The notes beneath the pieces were generated by a model, which did no database searches, was not told where the DNA came from, and saw only the letters and a program-made list of their open reading frames with translations. DNA of 63,818 bases, the filler included, from Limisphaerales bacterium (GTDB taxonomy: Bacteria; Verrucomicrobiota; Verrucomicrobiia; Limisphaerales; SIBE01): assembly GCA_044225505.1 (NCBI GenBank). It is 3 parts of 3 records of this genome, joined end to end, with 100 filler letters (N's around TTAATTAATTAA, not from the genome) between each part and the next. Parts side by side here need not be neighbours in the genome. Positions count along the whole stretch, not along the records: positions 1 to 23,888 come from JBGAIN010000135.1; positions 23,989 to 50,955 come from JBGAIN010000136.1; 1 more part is not named here. One strand, given 5' to 3'. Each line of letters starts with the position of its first letter. The stretch's first letter is position 1. Positions 7,964 to 50,561 of the stretch are shown piece by piece. Position numbers and translations under genes: made by a program.

Positions 7964-9658
7964 ATGAAACAAAAGCATCCACGCACGGTTCACACCGTCC
8001 TGATTCTCTTGCCCGTGACATGGCCGGCATGGTTTCGGAACACCCGAGTCCGACTCATCGCTGTCGCCATGTCCCTGGTCAGTTTTGCTCAAGCGTTCGG
8101 ACAGCCCGTCATCACGGTTCAGCCTACGGTTCAAATCACGACGCCGGGCGCCACGGTCACCTTTTCTGTTACAGCCACAGGCACGGTGCCGCTCGCTTAC
8201 CAATGGCGCTTCAACGACACGGACTTGCCCGACAAAACCAACCGCACCCTCGTGTTGGCCAACGCGCAGGCCAGCCATGCGGGCAACTACTCGGTTAGGG
8301 TGGCCAACGCTTCCGGCTCAGTCACCAGCCGAGTCGCCGGCCTGATGTTCACCACTGTTCATCGCATCGCGGGCATTTCGGCGAACCCAAATCTCAGCAT
8401 TTCGCTGAACCTGGAGGGGGTTGTCCCAAGGTCTTTTGCTCATTACTACGATATCTATCCACTGGAGGTTTCCACGGACCTTGTGGACTGGACTCCGTTG
8501 GTCACGCTCCAGCGTACCAACGATTCCACGGAGGTTTTGATCTTTCGCGACGACGATGCCACGAAATTCGGGCAACGATTCTATCGCACTTCGACCAATC
8601 ACTTATTGACTCCGTTTCCGAAACCTTCGGGCCCGTACCCTGTTGGGACGGTTTCGCGGCTGCTGACCGATCCTTCCCGCAGCAATCGCTATAATATCCG
8701 CACCAACAGCTCGTTTATGGTGACGATCTGGTATCCAGCCGAGGGTCGAGCCAGAGTATTGCCGGCTGCTTACGCCGAAAAGGAAGTCATTCCTATAAGT
8801 CCAAATCTCGTCGCGCAATTTGTGTCGCACGCGCTTCCTGGCGCAGCACTGGCTTCGATTAAAACCAGCTATCCTGTGGTCCTCTACTCACACGGGCTTA
8901 GGAATGGCCTGTACAGGCGGCAAAACAGTGACAAATCAGAGGAACTGGCCAGTCACGGATATGTAGTGGTGGCGGTGGATCACATCAACGCTGCCGTATC
9001 CGTGTTTCCAAACGGCCAGGTCGTCCATGGAACCGCACCCTCCTCGAACTGCGATCAGGCCTCTCTCCAAATCCTTCTCGACAATGCCATCAAGGATTTT
9101 CAGTTCGTTTTGGATGAACTGAGCACCCACGACACGCTTCTGGCAGGGCGAATGGACTTGGAGCGGTTGGGCGCCTTCGGTTTCTCCTGGGGATGTGCCC
9201 CGGTGGCGGAGTTTTGCAGAATCACCCCGGGTTGTAAGGGTGTGGTCCTGTTGGACGGCGGCTACCTTCTCGAGGCGCCGCCCGAGCTTGAACGGCTTGG
9301 ACTGCAAAAGCCGTTCCTTTCAATCAACGTCACGACGGGCTTTCCCGACGACCCTTGTCGTGCGGTAAGTGATTGGTTGTCATCCAGCCAAGCGTTTTTT
9401 GACCGCGCAACTCACGACGCATTCTGGTATCAACTTGAAGATTCCGCGCATGGCACTTTTGACGAGGCAATTGGCCTCATTTACGGTCCAACCTTGAGTT
9501 TCGAGGACGGTCCAACTCCCGCATCCAGGGCTGCTGACATGGCGCTGCGGGCCTGTACGCTCTCCTTCTTCAACAAGTACCTCAAAGGCGAGGACGACCA
9601 TTTGCTGGACGATCCCGCAGCGCTTTATCCCAACATCATCAACTTTCAGAAGAAATGA
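7964..9658 (+). CDS. Exported Ig-domain + PAF-acetylhydrolase-like alpha/beta hydrolase
   Basis: Signal peptide, Ig-like ITVQP...YQWRFN...YSVRV domain, PSGPYPVG, YPVVLYSHG, LASHGYVVVAVDH and GFSWG nucleophile. Confidence 0.8.
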   Translation: MKQKHPRTVHTVLILLPVTWPAWFRNTRVRLIAVAMSLVSFAQAFGQPVITVQPTVQITTPGATVTFSVTATGTVPLAYQWRFNDTDLPDKTNRTLVLANAQASHAGNYSVRVANASGSVTSRVAGLMFTTVHRIAGISANPNLSISLNLEGVVPRSFAHYYDIYPLEVSTDLVDWTPLVTLQRTNDSTEVLIFRDDDATKFGQRFYRTSTNHLLTPFPKPSGPYPVGTVSRLLTDPSRSNRYNIRTNSSFMVTIWYPAEGRARVLPAAYAEKEVIPISPNLVAQFVSHALPGAALASIKTSYPVVLYSHGLRNGLYRRQNSDKSEELASHGYVVVAVDHINAAVSVFPNGQVVHGTAPSSNCDQASLQILLDNAIKDFQFVLDELSTHDTLLAGRMDLERLGAFGFSWGCAPVAEFCRITPGCKGVVLLDGGYLLEAPPELERLGLQKPFLSINVTTGFPDDPCRAVSDWLSSSQAFFDRATHDAFWYQLEDSAHGTFDEAIGLIYGPTLSFEDGPTPASRAADMALRACTLSFFNKYLKGEDDHLLDDPAALYPNIINFQKK

Positions 9659-9729
9659 CCCGTGATTGCTGGAAGGGGTATCCACCATACCTGTGCTGCT
9701 CGCCTAAGCCAGGCCTAAGCCGGACCTGC

Positions 9730-12567
9730 ATGAAACCAACAATTCTCCTCGTGGCTGCTGTCTGCCTTGCGACGATAGTCATTCACTCGCACGGTCAAGA
9801 TGCTACCGGTGACGCCAAGCTGACCGTTCGCCGCTCATCTCAAGGCCTTGAACTCTCCTGGCCTGGCACCGTGCAGACGTCCGATGCTGCCATGGTTCGG
9901 CCCTACTTCGAGCTGCAGGGCAGCGCCGATTTGCTGAGCTGGCAGCCGATGGGGCAGCGCCAACGAGCGACGTCGGCAACGGCGGCTGAGTTGCTCGGCG
10001 TGACGCTGAGCGCCAGTGAGCCGTACTCCTTTTACCGGTTGCTGAGCGTCCAGCCGAGCAGCGTCGCCAAGCTCGGCTCGGGCGGCGCCGAAGTGTTCGG
10101 TTACGGCGACGCCTTCGCGCAAGAGTTGCAGCGCATCGGGCAGATTTCACCGGAGCAGTTTGCCGCCCTGTTTCCAAACGGAGCGAACTACCTGCCGGCC
10201 ATTTCCTGGGACCCAACCAGCGCACAGTATTGGGATCAGTTCAACGCCGACATCGAGCAAGTGAACAAGGGCAAGACATGGGGAGAACCTGGTTTTCGAT
10301 CCTTCGACACACGTCTTGACGCTGCGGAGTTCGCGGTTTTCAAGAAGAATGGATTCGTCGCCAGCGAGCGGCTCGGCGCGCGCAGTTTTGCCGATCTGTT
10401 CTACGCCCTTTGGCACAATGATCTGCCTGTCTTCATCTCCTGCGATGCCTTGCTCCAAGCCTGGCACCGCAGCTACGACGCCATGCTCGAGGAAATTGAA
10501 GAAACATATCTTTTCAACTCGGTGCAGACGATGCTCGATGGGATGACCGCTCAGGTTATCGCGGCGTCCACCGAAGCGGGCAACGGTGTTCTGAACGAGA
10601 GTTTGCTCGATGCGGACTATTTCTTGGCGGTCGCGCGCTCTTTGCTGACGGGCACGAACAGTCCGCCTATCACTCCACTGCCCGTCCTGAAAGCGCGTGT
10701 GGTGTCGACCCTTGCGGACATCCAAGATGAACAACTCAAGCAGGCTGGCGATTTCATGGGTTTCTGCAGGGTGGTGGACTTTTCGCAATTCAAGGTGCGC
10801 GGACATTACACGCACACCGAGCGGCTCGGTCGTTACTTCAAATGCGTGATGTGGCTCGGGCGTATCGATGTGCCAGTGGCCGGCGGGCCGTGGAAGCGTT
10901 GCCCCGGTCTCGAGCGGATGGCCTCACCGCGCGAGTTAGGCGTGGCCATCGTGCTCTGGCGCTTGCTCCACACCTCGGGTCAGTTCGAGCGTTGGCGCGA
11001 CCTGGAGCAGATCGTTCAAACCTTTGTCGGAGCCACCGATTCGATGACCTTTGGGCAATTGGGCGGGCTGCTCGCGGGCGCGGGCATTCAAACTTTGTCC
11101 GATGTGCGCGATCTTGCCACTCTCGAAAATTTGCAGAACGACATGGCGCGTGGTGAACTTGGAGTGCAGAGCATCCGCAGCGACTGGTTTGAACAACCCT
11201 TGGGTGGGGCCGCGCGCTACGCTCTGCCGCGGACTTTCACGGTCTTGGGACAGAAATTTGTGCCGGACAGCTGGGCGTTCTCTCAAACGGTCTTCGACAG
11301 CATTCTCCGGACGGAGAACGGCATGACCAACAAAGTGCAGCGGCGCGTTCCGGGCGCCCTGGATATCGCGTTTTCGGTTTTGGGCAACGATCAGATCGTT
11401 CCCGAGCTTTTGGCGCAAATGAATGGCCAGTTCGCCGACACAAATCGCCCACATGCCCAGCGCTTTCGGGACAGCCTGCCCTACCAGCAAAACTTGGCGG
11501 CGGTGCGCGGTGTGATCGATCTGCAGTCGTCCAGTGCCTGGGACAGTAATCTCTACACAAGCTGGCTGGCCTGCCTGCGAGAACTTTCCGCACCGACCAC
11601 TGCATTGACCTATCCCGAAGCACTGCGGACGCGCGCCTGGGCCATGAAGACACTCAACACGCAACTCGCTTCATGGACCCAACTTCGCCACGATACAGTG
11701 CTTTACGCCAAGCAGTCGTATACGGCTGCCGGTCAGTGCGTCTATCCGACTGGGTATGTTGAACCGCGCCTCGAGTTCTGGAGGCGCCTGAGGGCCATGG
11801 TAACTCGCGCCGCGGAACTGATCGCCAAGCTGCGATATGTTGGAGATTACCCGATGGTCACGGGCCGCCCACCTCAATTCGACCCCGAAACGGGCGAAGC
11901 CTACGATCCCGGCGAGTTGAAGACCAACCTCATCTCGCTCGTTGAAATCCAAGCCCGCCAGATGGCCCAACTTCAGAACTTTGGGCGCATCGTCTCCCGC
12001 TTGGAACTCCTGGCAACGAAGGAACTCGCCCATGAATGCTTCGGTGACGAGGATGAACGATTCATCGACGGAATGATGCAAGGAAGCACTCTCGCGGGAG
12101 CTTGTGGCGATTTTCCGAAGTTCAGCGGCTGGTACCCGCAACTGTTCTACCGGACAATCTACTGGACTGAAGACGAGCTGTTCCACACGACTTACGGGGC
12201 CGGAGCATTTGACGGTCTTGTGACGGACGTCCATACAGATGTCCCCTGCCTGGACTGTGGCGGTGATCCTGGCAGCGTGCTGCACGAAGCAACTGGGCGA
12301 GTGAACTTGCTGATGCTCGCCGTGGACAATGGCGCGGACCGCTTCATCTGCGCGGGTCCGGTGCTGAGCCATTACGAGTTTGAAGTCATCGGCGATCCTC
12401 GCCGGATCTCGGATCAAGAATGGCGCGGGCCAGGTGCTTGGTTTGACCAAAACGGTATTCTTCAAATGAATTTTCCCGACGACGTCCCGGCAAGCCGCAT
12501 CGAGGGCCTCGCACCTCCGGAATGGACCGGCAGTTACCTCGTCCCGGCGCCGAGAGGGTCACCATAG
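9730..12567 (+). CDS. Exported DUF3160-like protein
   Basis: Signal peptide; DFSQFKVRGHYT, LNTQLASWTQLRHDTVLYAKQSY, GYVEP and GPVLSHYEF motifs recalled from DUF3160. Confidence 0.8.
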   Translation: MKPTILLVAAVCLATIVIHSHGQDATGDAKLTVRRSSQGLELSWPGTVQTSDAAMVRPYFELQGSADLLSWQPMGQRQRATSATAAELLGVTLSASEPYSFYRLLSVQPSSVAKLGSGGAEVFGYGDAFAQELQRIGQISPEQFAALFPNGANYLPAISWDPTSAQYWDQFNADIEQVNKGKTWGEPGFRSFDTRLDAAEFAVFKKNGFVASERLGARSFADLFYALWHNDLPVFISCDALLQAWHRSYDAMLEEIEETYLFNSVQTMLDGMTAQVIAASTEAGNGVLNESLLDADYFLAVARSLLTGTNSPPITPLPVLKARVVSTLADIQDEQLKQAGDFMGFCRVVDFSQFKVRGHYTHTERLGRYFKCVMWLGRIDVPVAGGPWKRCPGLERMASPRELGVAIVLWRLLHTSGQFERWRDLEQIVQTFVGATDSMTFGQLGGLLAGAGIQTLSDVRDLATLENLQNDMARGELGVQSIRSDWFEQPLGGAARYALPRTFTVLGQKFVPDSWAFSQTVFDSILRTENGMTNKVQRRVPGALDIAFSVLGNDQIVPELLAQMNGQFADTNRPHAQRFRDSLPYQQNLAAVRGVIDLQSSSAWDSNLYTSWLACLRELSAPTTALTYPEALRTRAWAMKTLNTQLASWTQLRHDTVLYAKQSYTAAGQCVYPTGYVEPRLEFWRRLRAMVTRAAELIAKLRYVGDYPMVTGRPPQFDPETGEAYDPGELKTNLISLVEIQARQMAQLQNFGRIVSRLELLATKELAHECFGDEDERFIDGMMQGSTLAGACGDFPKFSGWYPQLFYRTIYWTEDELFHTTYGAGAFDGLVTDVHTDVPCLDCGGDPGSVLHEATGRVNLLMLAVDNGADRFICAGPVLSHYEFEVIGDPRRISDQEWRGPGAWFDQNGILQMNFPDDVPASRIEGLAPPEWTGSYLVPAPRGSP

Positions 12568-23888: not shown

Positions 23889-23988
23889 NNNNNNNNNNNN
23901 NNNNNNNNNNNNNNNNNNNNNNNNNNNNNNNNTTAATTAATTAANNNNNNNNNNNNNNNNNNNNNNNNNNNNNNNNNNNNNNNNNNNN
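23889..23988. other. Artificial contig-joining spacer
   Basis: N-run with a central TTAATTAATTAA (stop codons in all frames). Confidence 0.98.
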
Positions 23989-32861: not shown

Positions 32862-34598
32862 CTACTCTCCCGCCACCGCATTGAGCACATTCGTCTTGGC
32901 GACGTTCAGCAGGTAGCGCGAGTACTCTCCGTTATGCGCTCCGTAACTGCCGTCGTTTTCCACCAAATACAGGTTTAACCGAGCCTGTTTAATGCTATCG
33001 GGAACCTTGGCCTGCTCGGCCGTTGTCGGCCCACGCAAGCTGGCATCGTTGGTCGGATTCGAGAGTTGCCCAGGGACATTGTACTCCCAAGCCAGGCGAC
33101 CGTATTTCGTCTGGAGATCCGCTGGAGCATTATTCGTTGCCCAAGAGTCCAAGAGGGCACGCACGTCGGCGATTTGGGCTTTAGTGTTGGTCTGGGTGCG
33201 GGCCAGCACGCGCTGCGCCGTCGCGGTGCTCAGGTGGCATTCCGCGCAATTCTCGATGCGCACCTCAAAGGCGTGGCCTGTGTAATTCGGCGTCCCTTCG
33301 GACGGGGTCGTGGCAGTGTGGGGATGAGTGTGGCATTGCACACATTGATTCTCAATCTCGCCGTGCCCTGCCATGATCGGTTTGCCCAAATCGAACCCGC
33401 CCTGACCAATCAGCAGGTTGTACTGAGGCGAATGATGAGGCGGCCGCGACGTGTCTTGCCAGCGCGCGCCGCGCATGTTGTGACATTGTCCGCACAGCTG
33501 CACGTTGGGATTGTACTGAGCCGCGAACGAGGTGTTTGTCGACGTGCTATAGGAGAAATTAATCGTCGAGAACATTGGGTTCCGCAATTGAGGATCAGGC
33601 GACTTGGAAGGGTTGCTCATGTTCGAGTGCGGGTCGTGACACACTGCGCAGGTGATAGGGAAATAGGCAGCGTCTTGCCGGCTAGGCAAGGGAGTGCCTG
33701 GATGTTCCAACCCTTCCAGGAGCGATTCGCGAACCGCGCCGGAGTGACAAACACCACACGCCAACATCCGAGGTTCGCCTTGCTGCAGAATGGACGCACT
33801 GACATCCGCATTAGGCACAGCGTGCGCAGACGATTTCCATTCGTCAAAAGTCGGGTGATGAAAATCCGTATGGCAGCCCCCGCAGACTTCGGCGGCCATG
33901 GTAACCTTGGGTCGAGCTGAGACGTCGCGCACGTTGGCCACGTGACTTCCGCCTGGTCCGTGACAGTTCTCGCATTGAACGCCGGCCAGGTGGGGTGTGG
34001 AACTCTCGTCCTTGAAACCGAGCGGCGTGCCATAGCCGACGGTGTGGCAAACGAGGCAAGCGCTGTTCTTTTCCTGCTTGATCGCCTTCAACGTTTCCAG
34101 GGCGCGCGCGTGACCCGTTTGCGCCCAATTTTCATGGGCGTCGCCATGGCAATCCATGCACACGGTCGCTCCGACGTAGTTGAGCGTTCCGCCCGTCTCG
34201 GTGCTGGAGACGGGGCGCCCGCTCAAGACGCGAAAGAACCCAAGATCTCCTGGAATCGAGACGTCCAGGCGGGAGCCGAAGGTTGGCTGGCCCAGGTTAA
34301 CCCAAAGGTTGCTGTTGGCTTCGGTGCTATGAAGCACTTGAAACGGTCCTTGAATCCCGAACCACTGGACGGTGACAACGTCCTGGGTCTTCGTGACCGA
34401 CGTAATCACCGGGTGCAAGCTCAAGCCGCCAGGGATAGCCACGGGCGGCTTCACCATGAGATTGGTGTTCTCCGCCAGGGCCACGCTAACAGGCCACGTC
34501 ATCAGGATCGTCCAGACCGCGAGGGTCAACGGAACGACTTTCCGCGCGCGGCCGGCGCGATCCTCAATCCAGTGCGATGTCGACAGCTTCATAAGCAT
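32862..34598 (-). CDS. Nonaheme c-type cytochrome, exported
   Basis: Nine CxxCH motifs (CMDCH, CLVCH, CENCH, CGGCH, CGVCH, CAVCH, CGQCH, CVQCH, CAECH); signal peptide; C-terminal helical region with GAHN. Confidence 0.9.
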   Translation of the reverse strand: MLMKLSTSHWIEDRAGRARKVVPLTLAVWTILMTWPVSVALAENTNLMVKPPVAIPGGLSLHPVITSVTKTQDVVTVQWFGIQGPFQVLHSTEANSNLWVNLGQPTFGSRLDVSIPGDLGFFRVLSGRPVSSTETGGTLNYVGATVCMDCHGDAHENWAQTGHARALETLKAIKQEKNSACLVCHTVGYGTPLGFKDESSTPHLAGVQCENCHGPGGSHVANVRDVSARPKVTMAAEVCGGCHTDFHHPTFDEWKSSAHAVPNADVSASILQQGEPRMLACGVCHSGAVRESLLEGLEHPGTPLPSRQDAAYFPITCAVCHDPHSNMSNPSKSPDPQLRNPMFSTINFSYSTSTNTSFAAQYNPNVQLCGQCHNMRGARWQDTSRPPHHSPQYNLLIGQGGFDLGKPIMAGHGEIENQCVQCHTHPHTATTPSEGTPNYTGHAFEVRIENCAECHLSTATAQRVLARTQTNTKAQIADVRALLDSWATNNAPADLQTKYGRLAWEYNVPGQLSNPTNDASLRGPTTAEQAKVPDSIKQARLNLYLVENDGSYGAHNGEYSRYLLNVAKTNVLNAVAGE

Positions 34599-34653: not shown

Positions 34654-36813
34654 CTAAAATCGGTAATGCAAGGACGTATAGATCAGGTGCGCCTGATAAT
34701 CGTTTTGATTTCCCGCCGTGCGGTCTTCTCCATCAAAGAAGCCGTACTTCACGCTCACGCGCATGCGTTCGCTGATGCGCCGAGTCACCGTCGCGGTCAC
34801 GCCGTGTTCTTGGGCATCCGCTCCGTAGGGCAGCCCGGCCACAGAGTTATTCTCAAAATTATCCGCACGATAATACAAATACTGAAGTTGCAAGTCGGTC
34901 TTATCGTCCAAGGCATAGCCGATCAGTGAGTTCCCAGTCCAATAATTGTTCTTACCCTTCAGCACGGCGGCGGTCGCTTCGTCCGCGGGTGTGTCAGTCT
35001 GATCCCAAACATAGTTCAATCCGGCTTGCAGATAGAGCCTTTGCAATGGCGTCCAACTAATTGTGCCACTGACAATATGACTCGTCATCTCGGCCGCTTC
35101 CGTCTTGGACAATCCGGAGCTAGGGTCGGGCTTGCTATCGATCGTGGAGAGCTGGAAATCATAGCGACCGACCAAGGTCAGGTTGTTCAGAGGACGCCAG
35201 GTCACACGGAAGTTCGCATCGTCCGTGGAGAAATCTTGCGCTGTCAGGAACGCGGGGTAAGCGGAGACAGGCAAACTCGCGAGCACGTTCGGGTTCGAAT
35301 CCCGCGTGTGATCAAATTCGTTCCAACGTTCCTTGTGATAGTACTGCGCTCCGAAATTGAGGCGGCGCAACGGATACCAATTGGCTCCCACGGTATACGT
35401 TTGCCAAAAACGGTCCGAATCGGTCGATCGCTGCACAACGGGCGCTCCGGTACCCAGATTGTTCCAATCTTGCTTCAGATCCCCGGATCCTTGCAGCCAT
35501 TCACCGCGCGTATAAAACACCCAGTTCGTCACCCCGGTGTAACGCAAGTCAATCTTCTCCGTCACGTCGAGCAACCCGCGCTCGCTGTTCGCGCCGTAAG
35601 GGAATGAAGAGAGGGGCGCAGCGGGTGCATCGTAGGTGGATTGACTGTCCGTGTCTTCCCGTTCAATGCGCAACGACGGCACCAGCACGAGTGAATCCGT
35701 CAACTGCCACATGAGGTTCAAGTTCGCCACGTGCTGCTTCAGCTCAGATCCGCCATTCAGATTCTGGAAGGTGTCTGGAATAGGCAAGCGTTGGGCGAAA
35801 ACCGGGTCGTAAGTCGTCCCGTAGACTCGATAACCCGAAAGATCCGTCTCGAGCGTCGTGAACGAGTAACCACTCGTGAAGAGCACCTTGTCATTGAACC
35901 GCGTTTCGCTGAATGCGTGAACATTGAACAAGTCCGTCTCGACCTTGTCTCGCTGAGTGCCATAGCGCGACGTCAGACCGCCCGGATCCCTCAAGATATT
36001 GCGTCGATTGTCGTTCCCTGAAATCTCGTAGCGCAAGCCCAAGCCCAACGTGGTGTTGCCAAGCGTATGCTTCACGTCGCCCGCAAAAATGTCGCGGGTC
36101 TCATCGATATCCCAAAATCCGGGAACCACTTTGCGAATGCCGTAGCCCGGAATCGTCAAATCGCCCCACGCGGTCGAGTCTTTCTCTCCATCCCGAAACA
36201 TGTGGTCGAAACGGAAACTCACTTGCGGTTTGTTCGGCAAGGTCAATCCCGCTTCAAAAAATGCGTCGCCACGTTCGAGAATCAACCCGTCGTTGAACGG
36301 GGTGATCCAGGCTCCGGTCGGGTGAAAAAAGCCGCCGCTCCCATCAGAATAGGTTCGATACTCGCGATACCCACCGCGCACGTAACCAATATCTGGGTGC
36401 TCGACATCGAACTTCAGGGAGTAATCGTGGTTGTCGAAGAGACCGCGACCATCCACCTTGAAAATCCCCTTCTTGCCAATGTCCTGTTCGTAGTGAAAGT
36501 CCTCCACGCCGCCAAAGGCGGTGGTGGGCAATCCATAACGCCGCTGGTAAGCGGCTTTGTCGCCGTCCACCATCACCCCGCCGACTGAGACATCAAACCA
36601 GTTGCGGTACTCCGTCGCTTCTTCTTTCTTTTCCTCGCTCTTCGGCTTTTCAGCATCGGCTTTGGCATCCGCTTTCGCGTCCGCTTTAGCATCGTCTGCG
36701 GCCGGTTCCGCTGCCCAAGCGGTGCGTCCTAACGCCAGCATTGCCCCCATGGCCAGCGCCGAGGCGCGGGAGTATTTGCGAAGGTAACGGGCCAGTCTCT
36801 GGTGTCGTTTCAT
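34654..36813 (-). CDS. MtrB/PioB-like large outer-membrane beta-barrel
   Basis: Signal peptide, alternating amphipathic strands, C-terminal LHYRF BAM-type ending; located between two multiheme cytochrome genes. Confidence 0.8.
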   Translation of the reverse strand: MKRHQRLARYLRKYSRASALAMGAMLALGRTAWAAEPAADDAKADAKADAKADAEKPKSEEKKEEATEYRNWFDVSVGGVMVDGDKAAYQRRYGLPTTAFGGVEDFHYEQDIGKKGIFKVDGRGLFDNHDYSLKFDVEHPDIGYVRGGYREYRTYSDGSGGFFHPTGAWITPFNDGLILERGDAFFEAGLTLPNKPQVSFRFDHMFRDGEKDSTAWGDLTIPGYGIRKVVPGFWDIDETRDIFAGDVKHTLGNTTLGLGLRYEISGNDNRRNILRDPGGLTSRYGTQRDKVETDLFNVHAFSETRFNDKVLFTSGYSFTTLETDLSGYRVYGTTYDPVFAQRLPIPDTFQNLNGGSELKQHVANLNLMWQLTDSLVLVPSLRIEREDTDSQSTYDAPAAPLSSFPYGANSERGLLDVTEKIDLRYTGVTNWVFYTRGEWLQGSGDLKQDWNNLGTGAPVVQRSTDSDRFWQTYTVGANWYPLRRLNFGAQYYHKERWNEFDHTRDSNPNVLASLPVSAYPAFLTAQDFSTDDANFRVTWRPLNNLTLVGRYDFQLSTIDSKPDPSSGLSKTEAAEMTSHIVSGTISWTPLQRLYLQAGLNYVWDQTDTPADEATAAVLKGKNNYWTGNSLIGYALDDKTDLQLQYLYYRADNFENNSVAGLPYGADAQEHGVTATVTRRISERMRVSVKYGFFDGEDRTAGNQNDYQAHLIYTSLHYRF

Positions 36814-36832: not shown

Positions 36833-37651
36833 CTAGTAACGAAGAGAAGAACCGATCTGCGATCCGTGCACCGCTTCATGGCAACCTGCACTCCAGCACG
36901 TTCCGCGAGTGACAAGGCTCGAGTGGTCAATCCCGCCAATCTGAATGCGTCCTGGAGTCATTTGCTGCTGGAAATGACACTTTAAGCAAAGCGTTTGATT
37001 GCGCTCCGTGAGCAGCTTGGCATTCACCGAACCGTGCACTGCATGGCAACTGGTGCAACCTTCGCGCATCGCCTCATGCTCAAAGACGAACGGCCCGCGC
37101 TGGGCCGTGTGGCACTTCACGCAACTCTCGTCCGCTTTGGCAAACGTCGTCCCCATCCCGCGCACCCCAGACCCTTGATGCGGATTGTGACAATCACTGC
37201 AGCTTAGCTTGCCCTCGGGCACCGGATGGTGATTGGGCAAGCTAAACTCCCCACGCTTATCTAAATGGCAATCAAAGCAAACTTCCGGCGAACGATTGGG
37301 ATTGATAATGTTCCCGCGCCCGCCACCCGCGTCGACATGCACACTGCCGCCGCCGTGGCAAGATTCACATCCCATCTCCACCGCGTTCGGCCCTTTGGCG
37401 CGCAAATTGGCATGCGCCGCGTTCTTAAAGGGTTTGGTGATCGTCTCGTGGCAATCGGCACAACTTTCCGATCCGACGAATTTGGCGCCCTCGATCTGGG
37501 GCGGTGCGAGCAACACGCGGTTGGTGCTCATGCACGAAATCAACACCAGCGTGGCCAGGAGCCCCATGGCGCTCAGCCCTAGTTGAGTGGCATGTGACCT
37601 AACCCAGCGGCCACACTGTCGTAACTTCGGAAACTCGGGTGTCAGTTTCAT
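36833..37651 (-). CDS. MtrA/DmsE-like octaheme cytochrome c, probable lipoprotein
   Basis: Seven CxxCH plus a terminal CWSAGCH; DmsE-like GPFVFEH, CxxCHNPH and VHGS; candidate lipobox LISC. Confidence 0.88.
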   Translation of the reverse strand: MKLTPEFPKLRQCGRWVRSHATQLGLSAMGLLATLVLISCMSTNRVLLAPPQIEGAKFVGSESCADCHETITKPFKNAAHANLRAKGPNAVEMGCESCHGGGSVHVDAGGGRGNIINPNRSPEVCFDCHLDKRGEFSLPNHHPVPEGKLSCSDCHNPHQGSGVRGMGTTFAKADESCVKCHTAQRGPFVFEHEAMREGCTSCHAVHGSVNAKLLTERNQTLCLKCHFQQQMTPGRIQIGGIDHSSLVTRGTCWSAGCHEAVHGSQIGSSLRY

Positions 37652-38513: not shown

Positions 38514-40208
38514 TTATGGATTGGCGACCCGGTAAAAGCGCTGGGAGGAACTCGCAACGGCTGGATCCGCGATTTCGACCGCGCCGCTGCGATTGGTGAT
38601 GGTGAGGCTGGCTAAAGCCGACCAATGAACGAGGTCGCTTGAGGATTGCAACTGACACTGGCCACGTGCGCCACGGAGCGAAAGCACGGTGGCACCCTGG
38701 CGAACGGCAGCCTGGAGGCGCGGGGGTTCGACATAGGTTCGGAGTTGCCGAACTGGCACGTCGTTAAATTCCTGCACGCTCCCGGATGGCCACTCGATGC
38801 GGACCCGATCGGCCTTGGCCGCATCGCCAAGTCCGAAATGGGCCGTCAAGGGCATGCCTCGACCGCCATCGTTAATCTCCCGCACCTGCACAACCGCCTT
38901 CCCTCCAATGGTCGCCGAGACACGAAGCTTCGCGCCAATCGCGGCGGCGTTGCCAGCTGTGCCCAGGAGGCTGACTTCCAGCCAGGAATTCGCATTGCCG
39001 GTATTGTGATAGAGTGCATTCGAGACATCCTCGCCGTTGCGAGTGACAAACAGGTCGAGCGCCCCGTCATTGTCATAGTCCACCCAATCCGCGACCCAGC
39101 AATCGACGCTGGTCTGATCATCGGTGACCGGAGTTCCCTCCATGATTTCGGTGAAGGTGCCATCGCCCTGGTTGTGAAAGAGCCGGTTGCCCCCATTCGA
39201 GGACGTGACGAACAAATCGAGGTGACCGTCATTATCATAATCGCCCCAGGTACCACCTAAGGTAGCGGAATCGAAGCGCCGTGCCGCCATGGGGGTATTG
39301 GCTACCGCCGTAAAGGTCCCATCCCGATTGTTTTTATAAAGGCGATCCTCGCTTCCATCGTAGCCGGCAACAAAGAGATCAAACCAGCCGTCGTTATCGA
39401 AATCGCCCCAAGCGGCGCCAACTGCTCCGTTCGACCACCGATCGGAGCTGACGGCGTTGGCCGCGCGAGAGAAAGTGCCATTGCCGTTGTTGTGATAGAG
39501 GAAGTTGGACGCGTTGGGCGAAGCGTTGATGACGAGCAGATCCGCGAAGCCGTCGTTGTCATAGTCAGCCCACAAACAGTCAAACCCCACGCTGACGTCG
39601 TTGACGATAGATCCAGCCGTGATGCGAGTAAAAGTGCCGTCGCCAGCATTATGGAACAAGCGGTTCCGGCCGCCTTCATTGTTGGAACTGCCGTGGTCTG
39701 TGACAAACAAGTCCACCCATCCATCGCGGTCGAAGTCTGCCCAGGTGCATGGACCAAAGAAGCCCGGCGATGTGGCGATTGAGCTACCGCTGACGCGGGT
39801 GAAGGTGCCGTTGCCCTCGTTGTGGTAAAGGCTTGTGGGCAGCGGTTGCGGCGCGCCGACACCTGAGGTGACGACGAGATCCAGAGAGCCGTCGTTATCA
39901 TAGTCCGCAGCGGCGGCGCCGATTTGATCATCGGAGGTATCCTGGGCGGGATACCCTTCGGCGATTTTGGTGAAAGTGCCATTGCCGTTATTGCGGTAGA
40001 ACCCGTTCTGGGTGCCGCCCCCATTGCAGACAAATAAGTCCAGGAAACCGTCGTTATTGAAGTCAGCCCAGACCGCGCCGATCCAGGAACCGAGGTCGAG
40101 GACGATATCGCCCGTTGTCACGGTGGCAAACGGGGCGACCTGCCCCGGGCTTGGGCCGGTGGTTAGTCCCAGAAGGATGGTAGCAAATAAGCTCGCTTTG
40201 GCTTTCAT
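38514..40208 (-). CDS. Exported FG-GAP/ASPIC-UnbV protein with C-terminal 'FYR' module
   Basis: Signal peptide; about seven WxDYDNDGxxDL repeats; AIGA..AHFGLG..EWPSG; ends in QRFYRVANP. Confidence 0.88.
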   Translation of the reverse strand: MKAKASLFATILLGLTTGPSPGQVAPFATVTTGDIVLDLGSWIGAVWADFNNDGFLDLFVCNGGGTQNGFYRNNGNGTFTKIAEGYPAQDTSDDQIGAAAADYDNDGSLDLVVTSGVGAPQPLPTSLYHNEGNGTFTRVSGSSIATSPGFFGPCTWADFDRDGWVDLFVTDHGSSNNEGGRNRLFHNAGDGTFTRITAGSIVNDVSVGFDCLWADYDNDGFADLLVINASPNASNFLYHNNGNGTFSRAANAVSSDRWSNGAVGAAWGDFDNDGWFDLFVAGYDGSEDRLYKNNRDGTFTAVANTPMAARRFDSATLGGTWGDYDNDGHLDLFVTSSNGGNRLFHNQGDGTFTEIMEGTPVTDDQTSVDCWVADWVDYDNDGALDLFVTRNGEDVSNALYHNTGNANSWLEVSLLGTAGNAAAIGAKLRVSATIGGKAVVQVREINDGGRGMPLTAHFGLGDAAKADRVRIEWPSGSVQEFNDVPVRQLRTYVEPPRLQAAVRQGATVLSLRGARGQCQLQSSSDLVHWSALASLTITNRSGAVEIADPAVASSSQRFYRVANP

Positions 40209-40296: not shown

Positions 40297-40929
40297 ATGA
40301 ACGATGCCGAATCCGACTTGAATCCCACCCGGGAGAGCCTGTTAGGCCGGCTCAAGAATTGGGCTGACCAGGAAAGCTGGCACGACTTCTTTAATACCTA
40401 TTGGCGCCTTCTCTACAACACCGCGGTCAAGTCCGGCCTGAATGACGCGGAAGCCCAGGACGTCGTTCAAGATACGGTTATCACCGTCGCAAAAAAGATG
40501 GAGGAGTTCACATACAACCCGGCCGTTGACTCGTTCAAAGGTTGGCTGCTCTATCTGACGCGCAAGCGCATCGCCCTCCAGTACCGCCGCCGTGCCCGCG
40601 ACCGGGGCCAGACTAGAACCGATGGCGAGGTCGTCGAATGGACTCCGGCCGCTGAAGAAATTCCGGATCCAGCAGGATCAAAGTTGGACGACATCTGGGA
40701 GGAAGAATGGGAGAGGAGCCTTTGGAACGTCGCTCTCGCCAGGGTCAAGGATCAGGTAGCTCCCAAGCAATTCCAAATGTTCCAGCTCTATGTCTTGAAG
40801 GAGCTGCCAGCTCCCGAAGTGGCCCGGACGTTTCAGGTGACCGTGGCCCAGGTCTATCTCGCCAAGCACCGCCTTTCCACCCTGCTCCAGAAGGAACTCC
40901 TCCGGCTCCAGCGGGGCTCGATCCCCTGA
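40297..40929 (+). CDS. ECF sigma-70 factor of the kinase-associated type
   Basis: TRESLLGRL, SWHDFFNTY, AQDVVQD, SFKGWL and VYLAKHR. Confidence 0.92.
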   Translation: MNDAESDLNPTRESLLGRLKNWADQESWHDFFNTYWRLLYNTAVKSGLNDAEAQDVVQDTVITVAKKMEEFTYNPAVDSFKGWLLYLTRKRIALQYRRRARDRGQTRTDGEVVEWTPAAEEIPDPAGSKLDDIWEEEWERSLWNVALARVKDQVAPKQFQMFQLYVLKELPAPEVARTFQVTVAQVYLAKHRLSTLLQKELLRLQRGSIP

Positions 40930-41013
40930 CCTGGAGCTTGCCCATTCTCTCAGCCTTCCCTAAGCTACCGCGCGGACCGAGTCGGAAGGCCACCAGAACG
41001 AGCCGGTCCGATT

Positions 41014-44000
41014 ATGCCCGATCCCCCGTTTTCTCCGGACCCGAACCAGCACTCCCCGCGGGTGTGGCCCGTGCCCTCGGTGGCCATCCCGGATCACGAA
41101 CTGCTTCGTTGTATCGGCCGCGGCAGCTATGGAACCGTCTGGCTCGCTCGGAGCGTGATCGGCAGCTGGCGCGCCGTCAAAATCGTCCGCCGCGATCTGT
41201 TTACTGAAGTCGGCCCGTTTGAAAGAGAATTGGCCGGCATCCAACAGTTCGAGCCCGTATCCCGAACGCACCCCGGATTAGTGAGTATTTTGCATGTGGG
41301 GAAAAAAGAGTCGGACGAATGTTTCTACTACATCATGGAGTTGGCGGACGACGCCGCGGGAGGCGAGACCATTGAACCGCAAAACTACGCCGCCAGAACG
41401 TTGAGTCGTGACCTGCGCCGGCACGGCCGGTTGCCGCTCAGCGTGTGCCTTCGGCTGGGCCTCGCCTTGAGCAACGCCATGGAGCACCTTCATCGGCACG
41501 GCCTGGTCCATTGCGACCTCAAACCCTCGAACATCATCTTTGTGCGGGGCGTTCCAAAGCTGGCCGATGCCGGTCTGGTGGCCGCTGCCTTTCACGACGG
41601 CGGTTCCGCCGGAACGCGGGCCTACCAAGCGCCGGAGGGACCCGGCACACCCGCTGCCGACGTGTTTAGCCTGGGCAAGCTCCTCTACGAGATCAGCACG
41701 GGTTACGACCCTTTGCGCTTCCCCGAGTTGCCCAACGAACCGCACGGCTCTCTCGAGGAAAGTCGCCTGTTCGGGCATCTCAACGAGGTATTACTGCGGA
41801 CCTGCGAGCCAGATCCAACAAAACGACTGGCCAGCGCCGGCGCCCTCGCAGCGGCTTTGGCCCAAGGCGATGTTCCTCGCGGAGCCGGGCGCAGAGTCGA
41901 ACGTCGCGCGGCGGCTCAGTTGACAGGCACACTCCTTCCCAGCCACGGCGAACGCAAACTCGTCACCGTTCTGGCGGTGAACGTCAATCCGCGGCGTCGG
42001 CTAGACCCCGAGCGGCTCCAACAGTTACTGCGAGCTTTCCTGGAAGTGATCCGCTCCGTGACACTCACTTTTGGGGCGGCGCCCATCCCGTTAGGGAGCG
42101 ATGGAGTTTGGGTCACTTTTGGCGCCCCTGCCGCCTGCGAAGATCACGCCAGGCGGGCAACGGAGTGCGCGCTGGCAATCGCGCACCGTTTTGAGTGCCG
42201 GCCGCCCTCAGACGGGCCAACGGATCAAGGCGATTTCGAAGTGCGGTTCGGGCTCAGCACCGGCCTGGCTATCAGCGCCGAAGAAGACGCTTCCGCTCCG
42301 CTGCCCGTTCTGGGAGAACCGGTCACGGTCGCTGGCCGGTTGGCCGTCGCCGCCCGGCCGGGGGAGATCCTGATTGGGGAAGACACCCACCGCGCAGCCC
42401 ACCAGTATTTTGTCACCCACCCGGCGGCCGGCGGCTTGCTGCCCGAACCTTGGCACAATCTACGCGTCTTTCGAGTCCAAGGGGCTCGCCCGTTGCGGAC
42501 CCGGCTGCAAATCACGGCGGAGCGAGGGCTCACCCCTTATGTCGGCCGTGTTCGAGAACTGGAACTGCTCCACAATCGCTTCGAACAGGCCCGCGCTGGT
42601 CGCGGGCAAATAGTGCTGCTGGCGGGCGAGGCAGGTATCGGTAAATCCCGGCTGCTACTCGAGTTCCGTCGGTCAATCGCCGACGCCGGGACGCGCTGGC
42701 TGGAAGGACGGTCGGTCTCGTTTGGCAGCCGGATGAGCTATTTGCCCATCATCGACCTGGTCAAGCGGCTCTTTGAAATCGAAGACACGGACGACGATCG
42801 GATCGTCACCGCAAAACTGGATGCGCGCCTGAACCTATCCCCGGACGGGGACGAATTGCTCCGGCCACTGCTCCGCGCGTTGCTCTCGTTGCAGAGTGAT
42901 GATCCGGCCGTTCTTCACATGGACGCGCAGCAGCGCCGCATCCGGACCTTCGAAGGCTTGCGCCACATGATCCTGCGGCACGCCCGCCACCAACCTCTGG
43001 TCCTGGCCATTGAAGACCTGCACTGGCTGGACAAAACGTCCGAAGAGTTCTTGGTCTCGCTCTCGGAGGCGTTGTCCGAAGCGCCCGTATTGCTCCTCCT
43101 GACCTTTCGGCGGGACTATCGAGATCCGTTCCCGGCCCACGCTGCCGTCACAAGGACTTCGCTTACTCCCTTGACCAGGGCCGAGAGCCTGGAGTTGGCG
43201 AGTTGGGTCCTGGCGGGGGCGCGCTTGCCCTTGGAACTGGAACAGTTGGTCAGTGCGAAAGCCGAGGGCAATCCCTTCTTTGTCGAGGAGATGCTTCGCT
43301 CCCTGCTCTCGACGGGAAGACTCCAGCTGGAAGGCCATCAGTGCCGGACCACAGACTTGCTCTGGGACTCACAGGTTCCGGATACCGTCCAGGACGTTAT
43401 CATGAGCCGCATCGACCGGCTGGAGGCGGGTCCAAGGCAAACACTACAACTGGCCTCGGTGATCGGCCGCGAGTTCAGCGTCGGACTCCTCGCCACCCTC
43501 GCCGGGTTGGACGAGCCTTTGGCGGTCTCGCTCGGCCAGTTACGCGACCTTGAATTCATTGACGACAGCTCGGTCTTTCCCGACCACATCTGCCTCTTTA
43601 AGCACGCCTTGACTCAGGAGGTGGCCTACAACAGCCTGCTCCTGCAGCGTCGCAAGGAATTGCATTGTCTGGTCGCCGCTGCCATTGAGGAGCTTTACGC
43701 GACCCGCCTGCCCGAATTCTACAGTCTCGTCGCCTACCATTACGAACGCGGCGAAGAGTGGGATCGGGCCCTGGACTTCCTCATCCGAGCTGCGGAACGT
43801 TGCCACGCCGCCGCCGCTTACCGGGAAGAAGAACCATTGCTCAGCCGGGCCATGGCCATTTCCGAGCGCCTTGGCCACCCCGCTTTGCTCACGGAACTCC
43901 GCGGGCGCCGCGGGTCCGCGCGTCTCCGCCTCGGTGCCTGGGCCGAGGCTAAGCCGGATCTGGAAAGCGCCTTGGCCCAGGTCCCCCCCGATCAGATCGA

Positions 44001-45147
44001 GCGGCGCGCGGAATGGCTCCATGATCTAGCCAGCGCCTGCTTTTGGGACGTAGATATTCCTCGAGTGGCCAAGTGCGCGGCAGAGGGGCACTCGCTGGCG
44101 GTCCGGGCGGGGCGTGATGACCTCATCGCCGGCATGCTCGGCTGGCTGGGCGCGGAACGCCAGACCGAGGGCGACCTGAGCGGAGCAGCCTCGTTCTACG
44201 AAGAAGCCCTGGTCAAGGGGCACGGTTTCTGCGTCGCATCCCTGGCCAATTACGCGATGGTCCTTTACTGGCAGGGGCGCCTTCCCGAGGCCATCGCGCG
44301 CGCGCGCGAATCGACCCGGATGTATCGCAACCTCAGTGACGACTTTGCCCTGTGCTTTGCCTACCCCACCTCGGCTTGAGCTTGGCCGCGGCCGGCCGCT
44401 ATCGTGAGGCGGAAGAAGTATTTCAGCAGGCGATTCAGCTGGCGGAATCACGTCAGATTGCCACCTTTTTCGCCAGGTCCTCTGCCATGTCCGCAGGGTT
44501 TTACCTCGACCTGTGCGACTTCGCCCCGCATGAGCGGCTGGTCCAAGAAGTGCGAGAACTCGGACAGTCCGCCGGATTCGGAGCGGTCGTGGTCAGCACT
44601 TGCCTGGACCTGGCCTTCAATTACGCCCGCCAGGGCGAAGCTGGTCGAGCTGAACCCCTTCTTGCCCCCGATTGCCGCCGGAGCTACGAACCTGGGCGGA
44701 TGGCATCGCTGGCTCTGGGAAATCCGGTTGGTCCAAGTCCGCGCGGAAATCGCCCTGGCGCGCCAGGACTGGGACGCCGCTCTCAGCTGGTCAACCCAGT
44801 CCATCGCCTCGAGCCAGCAGCGGGGCCGGGTCAAATACTTCGTCGCCGGCCTGGTGGCGCGCGCCCAAGCCCTCGCGGGCAGAGGACGCAAAACGGAGGC
44901 GCTCGCTGATCTACGGCGGGCTATGTCCGTGGCACGGTCCGCCAGCGACCCCGCCCTTTTCTTGCGAGCCGGACTGGCCGCCATCGCTTTGGAACCGGAT
45001 GAAGCCGTGTTTCTCGAGGCCCAGGGAACGGCCCGAAAGATCCTGACGGAATTGCCTGAGAAAATGAAAACCCGCTTCCAAAACGGCGCCTGGATCGCAC
45101 CGCCGCGCGTCTCGGGAACATCGGTCACGCCCGGGATGGCTTGCTGA
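41014..45147 (+). CDS. Ser/Thr kinase + cyclase-homology domain + STAND/AAA ATPase + TPR fusion (frameshifts near 44370 and 44665)
   Basis: GRGSYG/HCDLKPSN kinase; ERKLVTVL..EDHARRA cyclase-like domain; VGRVREL, GEAGIGKS, IEDLHW, GNPFFVEE and FKHAL; TPR-like helices continue in ORFs 44352 and 44404. Confidence 0.85.
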
Positions 45148-45903: not shown

Positions 45904-45906
45904 CCC

Positions 45907-46104
45907 ATGGACGCTGACGCCATAAAACGAGCTGAGGAAGCAAAACGTGACGCCGCCTATGATCCCGCGGCGCGTTGGCTGCACTTGCAGCAAACGATTA
46001 CCTGGGCGGAGGAGAATATGCCACGCCACCTCCGGCGCAATCGCCCCCGGACGCATCCGAGCCAGGCTGCGGCTTCGACTCCAAACGACACGCCGAACCA
46101 TTGA
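45907..46104 (+). CDS. Small hypothetical protein, partner of the nucleotidyltransferase
   Basis: ATG 3 nt after the upstream stop; 65-aa helical sequence. Confidence 0.55.
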   Translation: MDADAIKRAEEAKRDAAYDPAARWLHLQQTITWAEENMPRHLRRNRPRTHPSQAAASTPNDTPNH

Positions 46105-46144
46105 CCGGCGTTCCGCGCGGGAGTAAGGTTGCACTGCGGTCTAA

Positions 46145-47237: not shown

Positions 47238-47245
47238 ATTGCCTC

Positions 47246-48117: not shown

Positions 48118-48189
48118 AGCCTTTGTCGTAACCACGGCGGCCGAGAAATGCAACATTCTTAACATATTTCAACGCGAGCCTGCGCAGCC

Positions 48190-48265
48190 TGCCGGTCATC
48201 GCATTCTCGCCATCGAGATTGGCGGAACGAAGCAGCAGGTGGCGGCCGGCACAGTTGACCACTAA
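48190..48265 (+). pseudogene. ROK-family (sugar kinase) N-terminal remnant
   Basis: RILAIEIGGTKQQVA resembles the ROK phosphate-1 motif, followed by an abrupt stop. Confidence 0.5.
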
Positions 48266-48341
48266 CACCAACGCAAATAATTGCCGTTGACCAGACGGCA
48301 GGCCGCCAGACCTCAAATCAACCCAACGGCCCTACAACGTT

Positions 48342-50561
48342 ATGAAAAAGCAATTATTGCTAACAGGATTAATCTGTTTCTTTTGCAGCCAGCTTAAAGC
48401 CCAAACAAACCTGATCCTTGCAGATTATGATGGTACCGATCTGAATTTCAGTAAATGGGGAGGCAACGTTTCATTTGCGATAGTTCCGAACCCTGACACA
48501 TCCGGAGCGAATACCTCTACAAGTGTCGGTGAGTTTACGTGGGGAGGGCCATCTTACGGGATAGAGAGTGCCCAGTTGCCTGGTGGAGTCATTGACTTTG
48601 GTGCAACGCCCTATGGCACAATGAAAATCTGGTCGGCAAAACCCATCAAAGTTGAACTTCAGTTCCAAAACTTTAGTGATTGGACATCCTCGGCGGTAGT
48701 GTCGTACACGTTAAAGGCGAGTCAGACAAATAAATGGGTTCAACTGGCTTTTGATTTCACGGGAGTAACGAAGACCGATCTTGACCGGGTGGTACTGTTT
48801 CTGGACCGTGCGGGTATCTACTCGGCGGATCAGGACAAGATTTATTTTGATGACATACAAGTAAGCAGTAAAAAGCCTGTCATACCATTGCTCGATGTGA
48901 TGCTTGCCGATTACGATGGAACCAATCTAACTTTCAGTACATGGGGAGGCAGCGGTTCATTTGCAAAAGTTGCCAACCCTCATCCATCCGGAGTAAATAC
49001 CTCTACCAATGTCGGTAAGTTTGCCTGGGGAGGGGTTACCTACGGGATAGAAAGTGCACAGTTACCGGGTGGCGCCATTGACTTTAGTGTAACGCCTTAT
49101 GGCATACTGAAAATCTGGTCGCCGAAACCCATAAAGGTTGAGCTTCAGTTCCAGGCCTTTAGTGATTGGACATCTTCGGCGGTAAGGTCTTACCAGTTGA
49201 CGGAAAGTCAGACCAATCAATGGGTTGAACTGGCTTTTGATTTTACCGGAGTAACGAAGACCAATCTCGATAGGGTAGTACTATTTCTGGACCGTGCGGG
49301 CACGTTCTCGAAGGGTCAGGACAAGTATTATTTTGATGACATAAGAGTCAGCGATGAAATGCCTGTAATGCCTGCACCTGATGTGATGCTAGCAAATTAC
49401 GATGGAACCGACCTGACTTTCAGTAAATCGGGAGGCAACGTTTCATTTGCAAAAGTCGCCAACCCTCATGCATTCGGAGTAAATACCTCCGGAAATGTCG
49501 GTAAGTTTGCCTGGGGAGGGGTTACCTATGGGATAGAAAGTGCACCGTTACCGGGTGGCGCCATTAATTTTGGTGCCACCCCTTATGGCGCAATGAAGAT
49601 CTGGTCGGCAAAACCCATACTGGTTGAGCTTCAGTTCCAGGCCTCTAGTGATAGGACATCTTCGGCGGTAAGGTCTTACCAGTTGACGGAAAGTCTGACC
49701 AATAAATGGGTTGAACTGGGTTTTGATTTTTCCAGGTTAACGATGACCAATCTCGACAGGGTGGTACTATTTCTTGATCGTGCGGGCACGTTCTCGACGG
49801 GCCAGGACAACTATTATTTTGATGACATAAGAGTCAGCAGTCAGAAGCCTCCAAAGCCGCCGGTTGACAGGATGCTGGCCGATTATGATGGAACCGACCT
49901 GACTTTCAGTAAATGGGGAGGCAACGTTTCATTTGCCATCGTTCCGAACCCTGACACATCCGGGGCAAATACCTCTGGAAATGTCAGTGAGTTTACGTGG
50001 GGAGGTCAGACTTTTGGGATGGAAAGTGCCCAGTTACCGGGTGGAGCTATTGACTTTAGCGGAACCCCTTATGGCAAGATGAAAATCTGGTCGGCAAACC
50101 CCATACTCGTTGAACTTCAGTTCCAGAACTTCGGTGATTGGACATCCTCGGCGGTAAGAACTTACCAGTTGACGGAAAGTCAGACCAATCAATGGGTTCA
50201 ACTGCTTTTTGATTTTACCGGATTGAAGAAGACCGATCTTGACCGCGTAGTACTGTTTCTGGACCGTGCGGGTATCTACTCGGCGGATCAGGATAAGTAT
50301 TACTTTGATGACATAGAGGTGGTGGTGCCCCACCCACCCTTCGACGTGACCCACATTGCGGTATCACTCACGGAGGTCGCCCTCACTTGGACCTCCGTCC
50401 CCTCTGCCACCTATACCATTGAAGGAACGACGAGTGTGTCGGACCCGACCGCGTGGGCCGTCGTGGCGCAAGACATCCCCTCCGGCGGCACCACCACCGC
50501 CAAGTCCGTGCCGCGCGACAATGCGAACGCGAAATTCTACCGCGTGAAGAACCAGCCTTGA
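48342..50561 (+). CDS. Exported protein with four tandem ~162-aa CBM-like domains and a C-terminal 'FYR' module
   Basis: Four repeats LADYDGT...LDRVVLFLDRAG...YFDDI with a period of ~486 nt; signal peptide ending LKA-Q. Confidence 0.85.
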   Translation: MKKQLLLTGLICFFCSQLKAQTNLILADYDGTDLNFSKWGGNVSFAIVPNPDTSGANTSTSVGEFTWGGPSYGIESAQLPGGVIDFGATPYGTMKIWSAKPIKVELQFQNFSDWTSSAVVSYTLKASQTNKWVQLAFDFTGVTKTDLDRVVLFLDRAGIYSADQDKIYFDDIQVSSKKPVIPLLDVMLADYDGTNLTFSTWGGSGSFAKVANPHPSGVNTSTNVGKFAWGGVTYGIESAQLPGGAIDFSVTPYGILKIWSPKPIKVELQFQAFSDWTSSAVRSYQLTESQTNQWVELAFDFTGVTKTNLDRVVLFLDRAGTFSKGQDKYYFDDIRVSDEMPVMPAPDVMLANYDGTDLTFSKSGGNVSFAKVANPHAFGVNTSGNVGKFAWGGVTYGIESAPLPGGAINFGATPYGAMKIWSAKPILVELQFQASSDRTSSAVRSYQLTESLTNKWVELGFDFSRLTMTNLDRVVLFLDRAGTFSTGQDNYYFDDIRVSSQKPPKPPVDRMLADYDGTDLTFSKWGGNVSFAIVPNPDTSGANTSGNVSEFTWGGQTFGMESAQLPGGAIDFSGTPYGKMKIWSANPILVELQFQNFGDWTSSAVRTYQLTESQTNQWVQLLFDFTGLKKTDLDRVVLFLDRAGIYSADQDKYYFDDIEVVVPHPPFDVTHIAVSLTEVALTWTSVPSATYTIEGTTSVSDPTAWAVVAQDIPSGGTTTAKSVPRDNANAKFYRVKNQP

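Follow-up and report, generated by a model that had tools for sequence, protein, structure and literature searches.

A truncated fibronectin III-like module on hundreds of proteins of a Limisphaerales bacterium, a possible export address for the type II secretion system

Five carriers in the window

The window analysed here, a stretch of 63,818 nucleotides from a Limisphaerales bacterium of the phylum Verrucomicrobiota (source genome, hereafter G000: 9.0 Mb, 342 contigs, 95% complete), holds five open reading frames (ORFs) that carry the same small domain, hereafter the module, on otherwise unrelated cargo (Table 1). The named homologs of the window proteins belong chiefly to Verrucomicrobiota. 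An initial annotation of the window had described the module as a domain of ~65 residues and suggested that it is a portable sorting tag. All five segments were located on the proposed proteins and scored with a profile, and in their alignment one tryptophan, one phenylalanine and one arginine are invariant. Genes were called as our own six-frame ORFs, signal peptides were assessed by eye and by hydrophobicity alone, and the measures of export features used below are crude.

Table 1. Module copies in the window and genes of the porin-cytochrome operon (iE, independent E-value; pLDDT, predicted local distance difference test).
Feature	Position	Strand	Carrier or identity	Scores and remarks
Module copy 1	8381..8599	+	alpha/beta-hydrolase (PAF-AH-like) gene 7931-9658, behind one Ig domain	31.2 bits, iE 1.2e-6; cargo by Pfam
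Module copy 2	9811..10050	+	DUF3160 protein 9655-12567, N-terminal, after a signal-like peptide	32.7 bits, iE 4.1e-7; DUF3160 E 3e-137
Module copy 3	34218..34427	-	nonaheme cytochrome 32862-34598, N-terminal, divergent	14.3 bits, iE 0.23
Module copy 4	38517..38738	-	FG-GAP/ASPIC-UnbV protein 38514-40208, extreme C-terminus	53.8 bits; model pLDDT 85.9
Module copy 5	50319..50558	+	four-repeat protein 48342-50561, extreme C-terminus	38.9 bits
Nonaheme cytochrome, OcwA-like	32862..34598	-	candidate surface terminal oxidoreductase	9 CXXCH; carries module
MtrB-like outer-membrane barrel	34654..36813	-		no module; no Pfam match; Atlas neighbours 0.98-0.99
MtrA/DmsE-like multiheme cytochrome	36833..37651	-		no module; 7 CXXCH + one atypical motif

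The scores were obtained with a profile of 253 copies from the genome, the five window copies being left out, and this scoring is not fully independent because the 253 copies had been gathered by iterating from those five. Four copies reached 31-54 bits; the cytochrome copy, taken alone, was not significant, and it is backed by the homologs of its carrier, 92 of 119 of which have a match of at least 15 bits in the corresponding N-terminal position (reversed decoys, 0 of 119), as well as by a module-bearing paralog in the genome and by an AlphaFold model. A profile search of the window found no sixth copy. The small shared domain of the initial annotation was thus retained, with an actual size of ~70-75 residues, or 55 for the copies of a short subfamily, and the "DL" placed before the tryptophan showed only partial conservation (D 37%, L 73%). 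The variety of placements, N-terminal, internal and C-terminal, was confirmed genome-wide, but the supposedly internal copy of the hydrolase is more plausibly an N-terminal one preceded by a single Ig domain, because the module is N-terminal in three further carriers that share its downstream sequence. In four of the five window carriers the likely signal cleavage would expose a glutamine, which recalls the Bacteroidetes Q-rule.

Family size, cargo and exchange of tails

The module represents a real, large and uncatalogued family. Iteration of the profile through the whole six-frame ORF set of the genome recovered 304 proteins with 312 domains at iE < 0.05, and reversed-ORF decoys gave no match at iE < 0.1 as compared to 319 real domains; the shorter subfamily, whose homology to the main one has an hhalign probability of 98, adds 27 proteins, for a total of 331 carriers. 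The module is C-terminal in 282 of them (280, plus 2 at contig ends), N-terminal in 36 and internal in 13, and in 252 of the 331 it is followed by at most three residues before the protein ends. Single copies prevail (299/304 carriers, tandem copies occurring in 5/304), and cluster representatives include tandem carriers with up to several copies per protein. The search of representatives returned 93,595 proteins at E ≤ 0.001, an upper bound since canonical fibronectin type III (FN3) domains inflate the count: among the best 150 representatives a crude motif test classed 61 as FN3-like repeats, and of the remaining 89, 78 had a C-terminal module.

No family in the Pfam and NCBIfam releases searched covers the module (0/98 copies matched NCBIfam at E ≤ 0.1), and newer Pfam or InterPro releases may hold one; its neighbours in the Atlas, at 0.95-0.96, are Verrucomicrobiota clusters without a name. 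Our literature search, which covered the main text of openly available articles, found no description of the domain, nor is it mentioned in the accessible portions of PMC5148204 and PMC3482391. A TSP3-like acidic linker lies upstream of the module in 23 of 256 C-terminal carriers of G000. Amuc_1099 was considered as the module's family and discarded, its weak match on one carrier mapping to the TSP3-like linker (profile positions ~99-193) and not to the module.

Cargo was scanned in 65 of the 331 carriers, out of 100 retrieved, and the Pfam matches found in 40 of these were all judged to be of extracellular type. The cargo domains of carriers comprise S8 and M4 peptidases, LamG, PA14, FG-GAP, NHL, CotH/LTD, Ig, PKD, cadherin, DUF5122, DUF4082, esterase and haloperoxidase. 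Two or more later transmembrane helices were present in 0/283 carriers vs. 463/4241 other genes, Walker A motifs in 7/331 vs. 231/4335, and twin-arginine translocation (Tat) motifs in 0/331 vs. 65/4335, while an N-terminal hydrophobic stretch occurred in 176/257 carriers, 1175/2615 other genes and 36/167 Walker-A proteins. Crude as they are, these four counts reject an equal use of the module on cytoplasmic proteins, the case that the initial annotation had set against its own proposal. A first signal-peptide heuristic, with its background of 41%, carries little weight here.

Nothing argues more strongly for an addressing role than the exchange of tails on homologous cargo, which leaves export and anchoring undistinguished. 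The 119 best homologs of the FG-GAP cargo end in the module in 114 cases and in the module plus an extension in one, two carry PF18962 at that place and two are truncated. In a cross-genome set of 80 FG-GAP loci the ASPIC domain was located in 75, and 11 of the 14 loci with a Verrucomicrobiota title end in the module (one weakly), 2 have no tail and 1 is cut. Among the other 61 loci, 35 are cut by the flank and 26 are complete, the latter ending in Por_Secre_tail or FlgD_ig (14), Dockerin_1 (3), the module (2, one locus unclassified and one with a doubtful title) or something else or nothing (7). For the four-repeat cargo, whose named homologs are mainly from Bacteroidota, 37 out of 102 homologs carry PF18962, 50 a lipobox-like motif (1 has both) and 1 the module, another 15 fall under neither label, and none of the 102 combines the module with a C-terminal domain (CTD) of the secretion system of type IX (T9SS). 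The module therefore sits where other lineages place an export signal or an anchor.

The nonaheme cytochrome belongs to an operon in which the MtrA/DmsE-like multiheme cytochrome is followed by the MtrB-like barrel and then by the nonaheme protein, in the position of MtrC. The barrel has one Atlas cluster named MtrB/PioB family among its neighbours, and PF11854 is found on 10% of the members of its top cluster; the MtrA/DmsE-like protein matches the NCBIfam GSU2203 and DmsE families (E 6e-53 and 4e-47), in both cases below the cut-off. The best Foldseek matches of the nonaheme model are OcwA (6i5b, E 7e-11) and an undecaheme cytochrome (6qvm, E 3e-9), and the family is widespread (1843 matches among 8000 scored), with the module-bearing paralog of G000 (G000:C198:14750) adjoining other multiheme genes. 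In excerpted text OcwA is cell-surface associated and has iron-reducing activity (PMC7829351), and the Shewanella MtrC is described, in the part of the source available, as a lipoprotein needing the secretion system of type II (T2SS) to reach the surface (PMC12175506). By analogy, the nonaheme cytochrome would be located at the surface; it carries an N-terminal module in place of a lipobox, a motif present in only 10 of its 119 homologs (loose pattern), so that a C-terminal position is not required.

These observations bring in the main rival of an export signal, a non-covalent surface tether, according to which cargo leaves the cell by a general route and the module, similarly to a dockerin or an SLH domain, binds lipopolysaccharide or exopolysaccharide, an S-layer or a PEP-CTERM-anchored scaffold. 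Such a tether would work at either end and in tandem copies, it would agree with the dockerins at 3 loci and the lipoboxes of 50/102 homologs, and it would hold on the cell an OcwA-like cytochrome that mostly lacks a lipobox and yet should stay there. Conversely, among exchange partners whose role is known the T9SS CTD, which is an export signal, is the commonest, and one copy per protein is the rule. We consider the tether unlikely on balance, even though it is the most serious competitor.

Fold and secretion machinery

The AlphaFold model (98-row alignment) consists of six strands (pLDDT 85.9), and the N-terminal copy of the cytochrome is modelled with the same six (pLDDT ~90) and no seventh. 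The conserved columns are W (95%), F (86%), Y/F (96%), R (95%), E/Q (88%) and L (73%). Fold searches returned FN3-type domains aligned through strand F, many FN3 chains reaching Z 5.5-7.4, with the Fn3 domain of PelI/Pel3 as top match (Z 7.4, root-mean-square deviation 2.2 over 66 residues). In the comparison with the Ig-like fold of the T9SS CTD, no T9SS CTD is among the fold matches listed, the best of which are of FN3 type. At the sequence level the profile cross-matches FN3con (E 3.8e-4), titin FN3 and part of CBM32 (E 4.7e-5), the last covering only profile positions 12-57, and CBM32 chains reach a TM-score of ~0.39, with a discoidin fold of ~130 residues vs. the 55-75 of the module. No G-strand motif follows any of the 43 N-terminal or internal copies examined, and Pfam fn3 matched 0/98 copies. 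By its fold and profile matches the module is therefore derived from FN3 and, as modelled, a sandwich of 55-75 residues without strand G.

This derivation also feeds the view that the module has no sorting role and is a spacer, cap or weak glycan-binding domain of FN3 origin, spread among extracellular proteins. The cross-matches to FN3con and, in part, to CBM32 speak in its favor, as do the 61 FN3-like repeats of the best 150 representatives and the frequency of FN3 domains on bacterial carbohydrate-active enzymes, as reported in the available part of PMC7949064. An ordinary FN3, nonetheless, is not fixed at the last residues of 76% of its hosts, and the module is retained in 114/119 FG-GAP homologs and, N-terminally, in the cytochrome family, swaps with known tails, and sits on cargo, including cytochromes and peptidases, that shares no ligand. 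A sorting-free domain thus seems to us a rather improbable explanation, less so than a dedicated translocon (see below) and more so than a tether.

The distribution of the module was surveyed in 250 sampled genomes of the phylum, with at most 23 candidates scored per genome, and 112 of them possess it. Genomes were grouped by copy number (at least 10, n = 56; 3-9, n = 31; 1-2, n = 25; none, n = 138), and in this order of groups GspK was found in 55, 28, 15 and 38 genomes, GspG in 50, 27, 18 and 82, and an Amuc_1098-like secretin in 54, 25, 22 and 106. GspK is hence present in 83 of the 87 genomes with at least three copies, the other four having weaker GspK matches, and in five module-rich genomes that fell short of the cut-off for GspG, this protein as well as GspK and the secretins are divergent; since the cut-offs were relaxed only outside the zero group, this rescue of exceptions is one-sided. 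Genomes without the module stay near zero, a cross-genome profile adding 1-2 copies in 8/80 and the short subfamily in 1/79. T2SS looks necessary, and not sufficient, for the presence of the module. GspG was dropped as a marker, being confounded by the threshold and by reduced operons. Phylogenetic profiling, which the initial annotation had suggested as a way to find a co-occurring translocon, shows GspK co-occurring with the module and PEP-CTERM following it equally well.

The T2SS operons of the phylum (loci L096-L134) share a G-H-I-J-K-L-M-D core; at three loci, all of them in families without the module, D, E, F, G and K alone are seen. GspC was not recognised in these regions, no family search for it having been made, and no gene specific to module-rich genomes emerged from the clustering of 39 T2SS regions. 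A quick GspK tree served only to choose the core T2SS copy. G000 has six secretin matches, contiguous T2SS operons on contigs C303 and C260, a third GspK on C68 and a secretin on C188, in addition to an Amuc_1098-1101-like operon and a pilMNO-Q operon; a cultured relative possesses T2SS, Sec and Tat, as stated in the accessible text of PMC5148204. The full T2SS operon on C260 is closed by a secretin of 4328 residues (G000:C260:88460-101443, strand -, L050) in which the GspD profile matches 22 stretches, apparently N-domains in a long array, compared to the 700-1150 residues of typical secretins of related operons.

In contrast to the undescribed pathway suggested by the initial annotation, no new translocon is needed, because a T2SS-like gene set occurs in every module-rich genome checked. 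A dedicated undescribed translocon, or a system of the Amuc_1098 type, might still read the module, given that T2SS is not sufficient (38 GspK-positive genomes lack the module), that an Amuc_1098-like secretin is found in 54/56 module-rich genomes and that two secretin operons of G000 are directly followed by carriers. The same secretin is, however, present in 106/138 zero genomes, and a carrier lies near an Amuc_1098-like operon in 1/20 other genomes, so we regard this explanation as the least probable of all. As a specific partner the Amuc_1098-like secretin was rejected, being near-universal in the phylum. The two G000 cases (C78 and C208; L047 and L048), in which module-bearing genes follow on the same strand, look local, and for the Amuc_1098-like operon the arrangement was not reproduced in a set of 20 other genomes.

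We propose as the best reading, with a probability of roughly 0.45, that the module is an outer-membrane export address read by T2SS. Sec would carry the protein into the periplasm, where the cargo would fold, and the folded module would be recognised by the T2SS of the phylum, through secretin N-domains or the pseudopilus, and the protein moved out. Either end could serve because a folded surface would be recognised, without terminal cleavage. By the FN3 register the F and R of the last strand would face outward and, together with the edge that the absence of strand G leaves open, they could form a docking site; release and retention of the exported cargo are both compatible with the scheme. 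That the module has some envelope-addressing role is quite likely, and to this extent the sorting tag first suggested is sustained by terminal placement, extracellular-type cargo and tail exchange, which do not separate an export signal from an anchor. More tentative is the wider proposal of a truncated FN3 turned into a universal, position-independent T2SS tag on hundreds of substrates per Verrucomicrobiota genome.

Several results weigh against export through T2SS. PEP-CTERM (56, 30, 15 and 51 genomes in the four groups) tracks the module as well as GspK does, indicating that the profile largely reflects lineage, kin genomes not being independent. The broader profile finds only 1-2 copies, in 5 of the 38 GspK-positive genomes without module, and within G000 23 of 29 FG-GAP paralogs lack it. 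Carriers do not cluster with either machinery: 20 + 20 regions from other genomes gave 5 module ORFs per 398 kb near T2SS operons and 1 per 384 kb near Amuc_1098-like secretins, against 9 per 368 kb in the control. A tether would agree with the swaps with dockerins and lipid anchors, the tandem copies and a terminal cytochrome that has to remain on the cell. Z 7.4 is typical for a common fold, tissue factor and DUF3244 lying within ~1 Z, and T2SS signals are described as composite and substrate-specific (PMC7949064, portions available); an export role and binding to GspC/GspD would be predicted for the module by analogy. PEP-CTERM, found in 86/87 genomes with at least three copies, and the exosortase of G000 would also suit a tether to a PEP-CTERM-anchored scaffold; on the other hand, 24 zero-module genomes have PEP-CTERM without a GspK match, and at least three module copies are present in 82/121 PEP-CTERM genomes with GspK vs. 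4/31 without, 16 of those 31 being of one genus.

In soil, fresh water and the sea, Verrucomicrobiota rank among the major degraders of polysaccharides, and little has been described of how their enzymes pass through the outer membrane; a domain carried by 331 proteins of a single genome would allow the exoproteome to be predicted from sequence alone. If the T2SS reading is correct, the module would be a T2SS signal that is general and recognisable from sequence, the first of its kind, and a functional counterpart of the T9SS CTD of Bacteroidota, serving polysaccharide-degrading enzymes and surface cytochromes alike, and such a portable tag would make substrate recruitment testable and possibly offer a secretion handle. 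If it is instead a tether, it would still define a surface-display system of which we found no description in the literature.

As to the remainder of the window, two pairs of extracytoplasmic function (ECF) sigma factor and Ser/Thr kinase (3625-7787 and 40297-45147), of the kinase-WD40 and kinase-cyclase-AAA-TPR types, each adjoin module-bearing genes and are possible regulators of exported cargo. Runs of N occupy positions 23889-23988, where they interrupt an NAD synthase gene (23933-25117), and 50956-51055, beyond which a flagellar cluster extends over 51141-63817 (FliK-like, FlgD-like, FlgE, FliL-like, FliM, FliP, FliR, FlhB, FlhA, FlhF-like).

Comparison with known systems

The T9SS CTD of type A (Por_Secre_tail, PF18962) and the FlgD_ig tails of the Fibrobacterota-Chlorobiota-Bacteroidota (FCB) group are, like the module, small beta-sandwiches at the extreme C-terminus of many Sec-type cargos, and they occupy the same position on homologous cargo. 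The initial analogy holds for this position and fails elsewhere, as the module has a six-strand FN3-like fold without strand G, is not C-terminal in 49/331 carriers (36 N-terminal and 13 internal copies) and matches neither Pfam (0/98 at E ≤ 0.05) nor NCBIfam (Por_Secre_tail/TIGR04183, 0/98), although the Pfam model did detect CTDs on homologous cargo. PorV was not found in G000, 95% complete as it is (no PF19572 match, control genome positive); SprA (TIGR04189) and PF18962 had no match there either, with control genomes equally silent. The module is not a T9SS CTD.

Dockerin type I domains and lipoprotein anchors are alternative terminal addresses on the same cargo, and the module has neither calcium-loop repeats nor a lipobox. 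PEP-CTERM with its exosortase co-occurs in the same genomes (1/15 PEP-tailed genes also carries the module), but PEP-CTERM and GlyGly-CTERM consist of a short motif, a transmembrane helix and a basic tail, whereas the module is all-beta in its model and lacks a transmembrane tail. With fibronectin III (Pfam fn3) it shares the strand order and the residue pattern of strands A-F; the canonical domain has seven strands including G, which is missing from C- and N-terminal copies of the module, and the module differs also in its fixed terminal placement.

The closest precedent in structure is the Fn3 domain of PelI/Pel3 (PDB 3b4n, 4u49), a terminal accessory domain on a secreted enzyme and our best structural match, at a modest Z. 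According to the available part of PMC7949064, T2SS substrates have no common linear signal, and loop 3 of the PelI Fn3 serves as a T2SS signal and makes contact with GspC and GspD; in the same account this domain has seven strands, is limited to a few gammaproteobacterial lyases and acts within a species-specific composite signal. A host T2SS, as a determinant of the PelI type would need, occurs in G000 and in 83/87 genomes with at least three copies. The module shares 12-22% identity with PelI/Pel3 Fn3 and is found on hundreds of unrelated cargos, and its resemblance to the PelI determinant is one of fold only.

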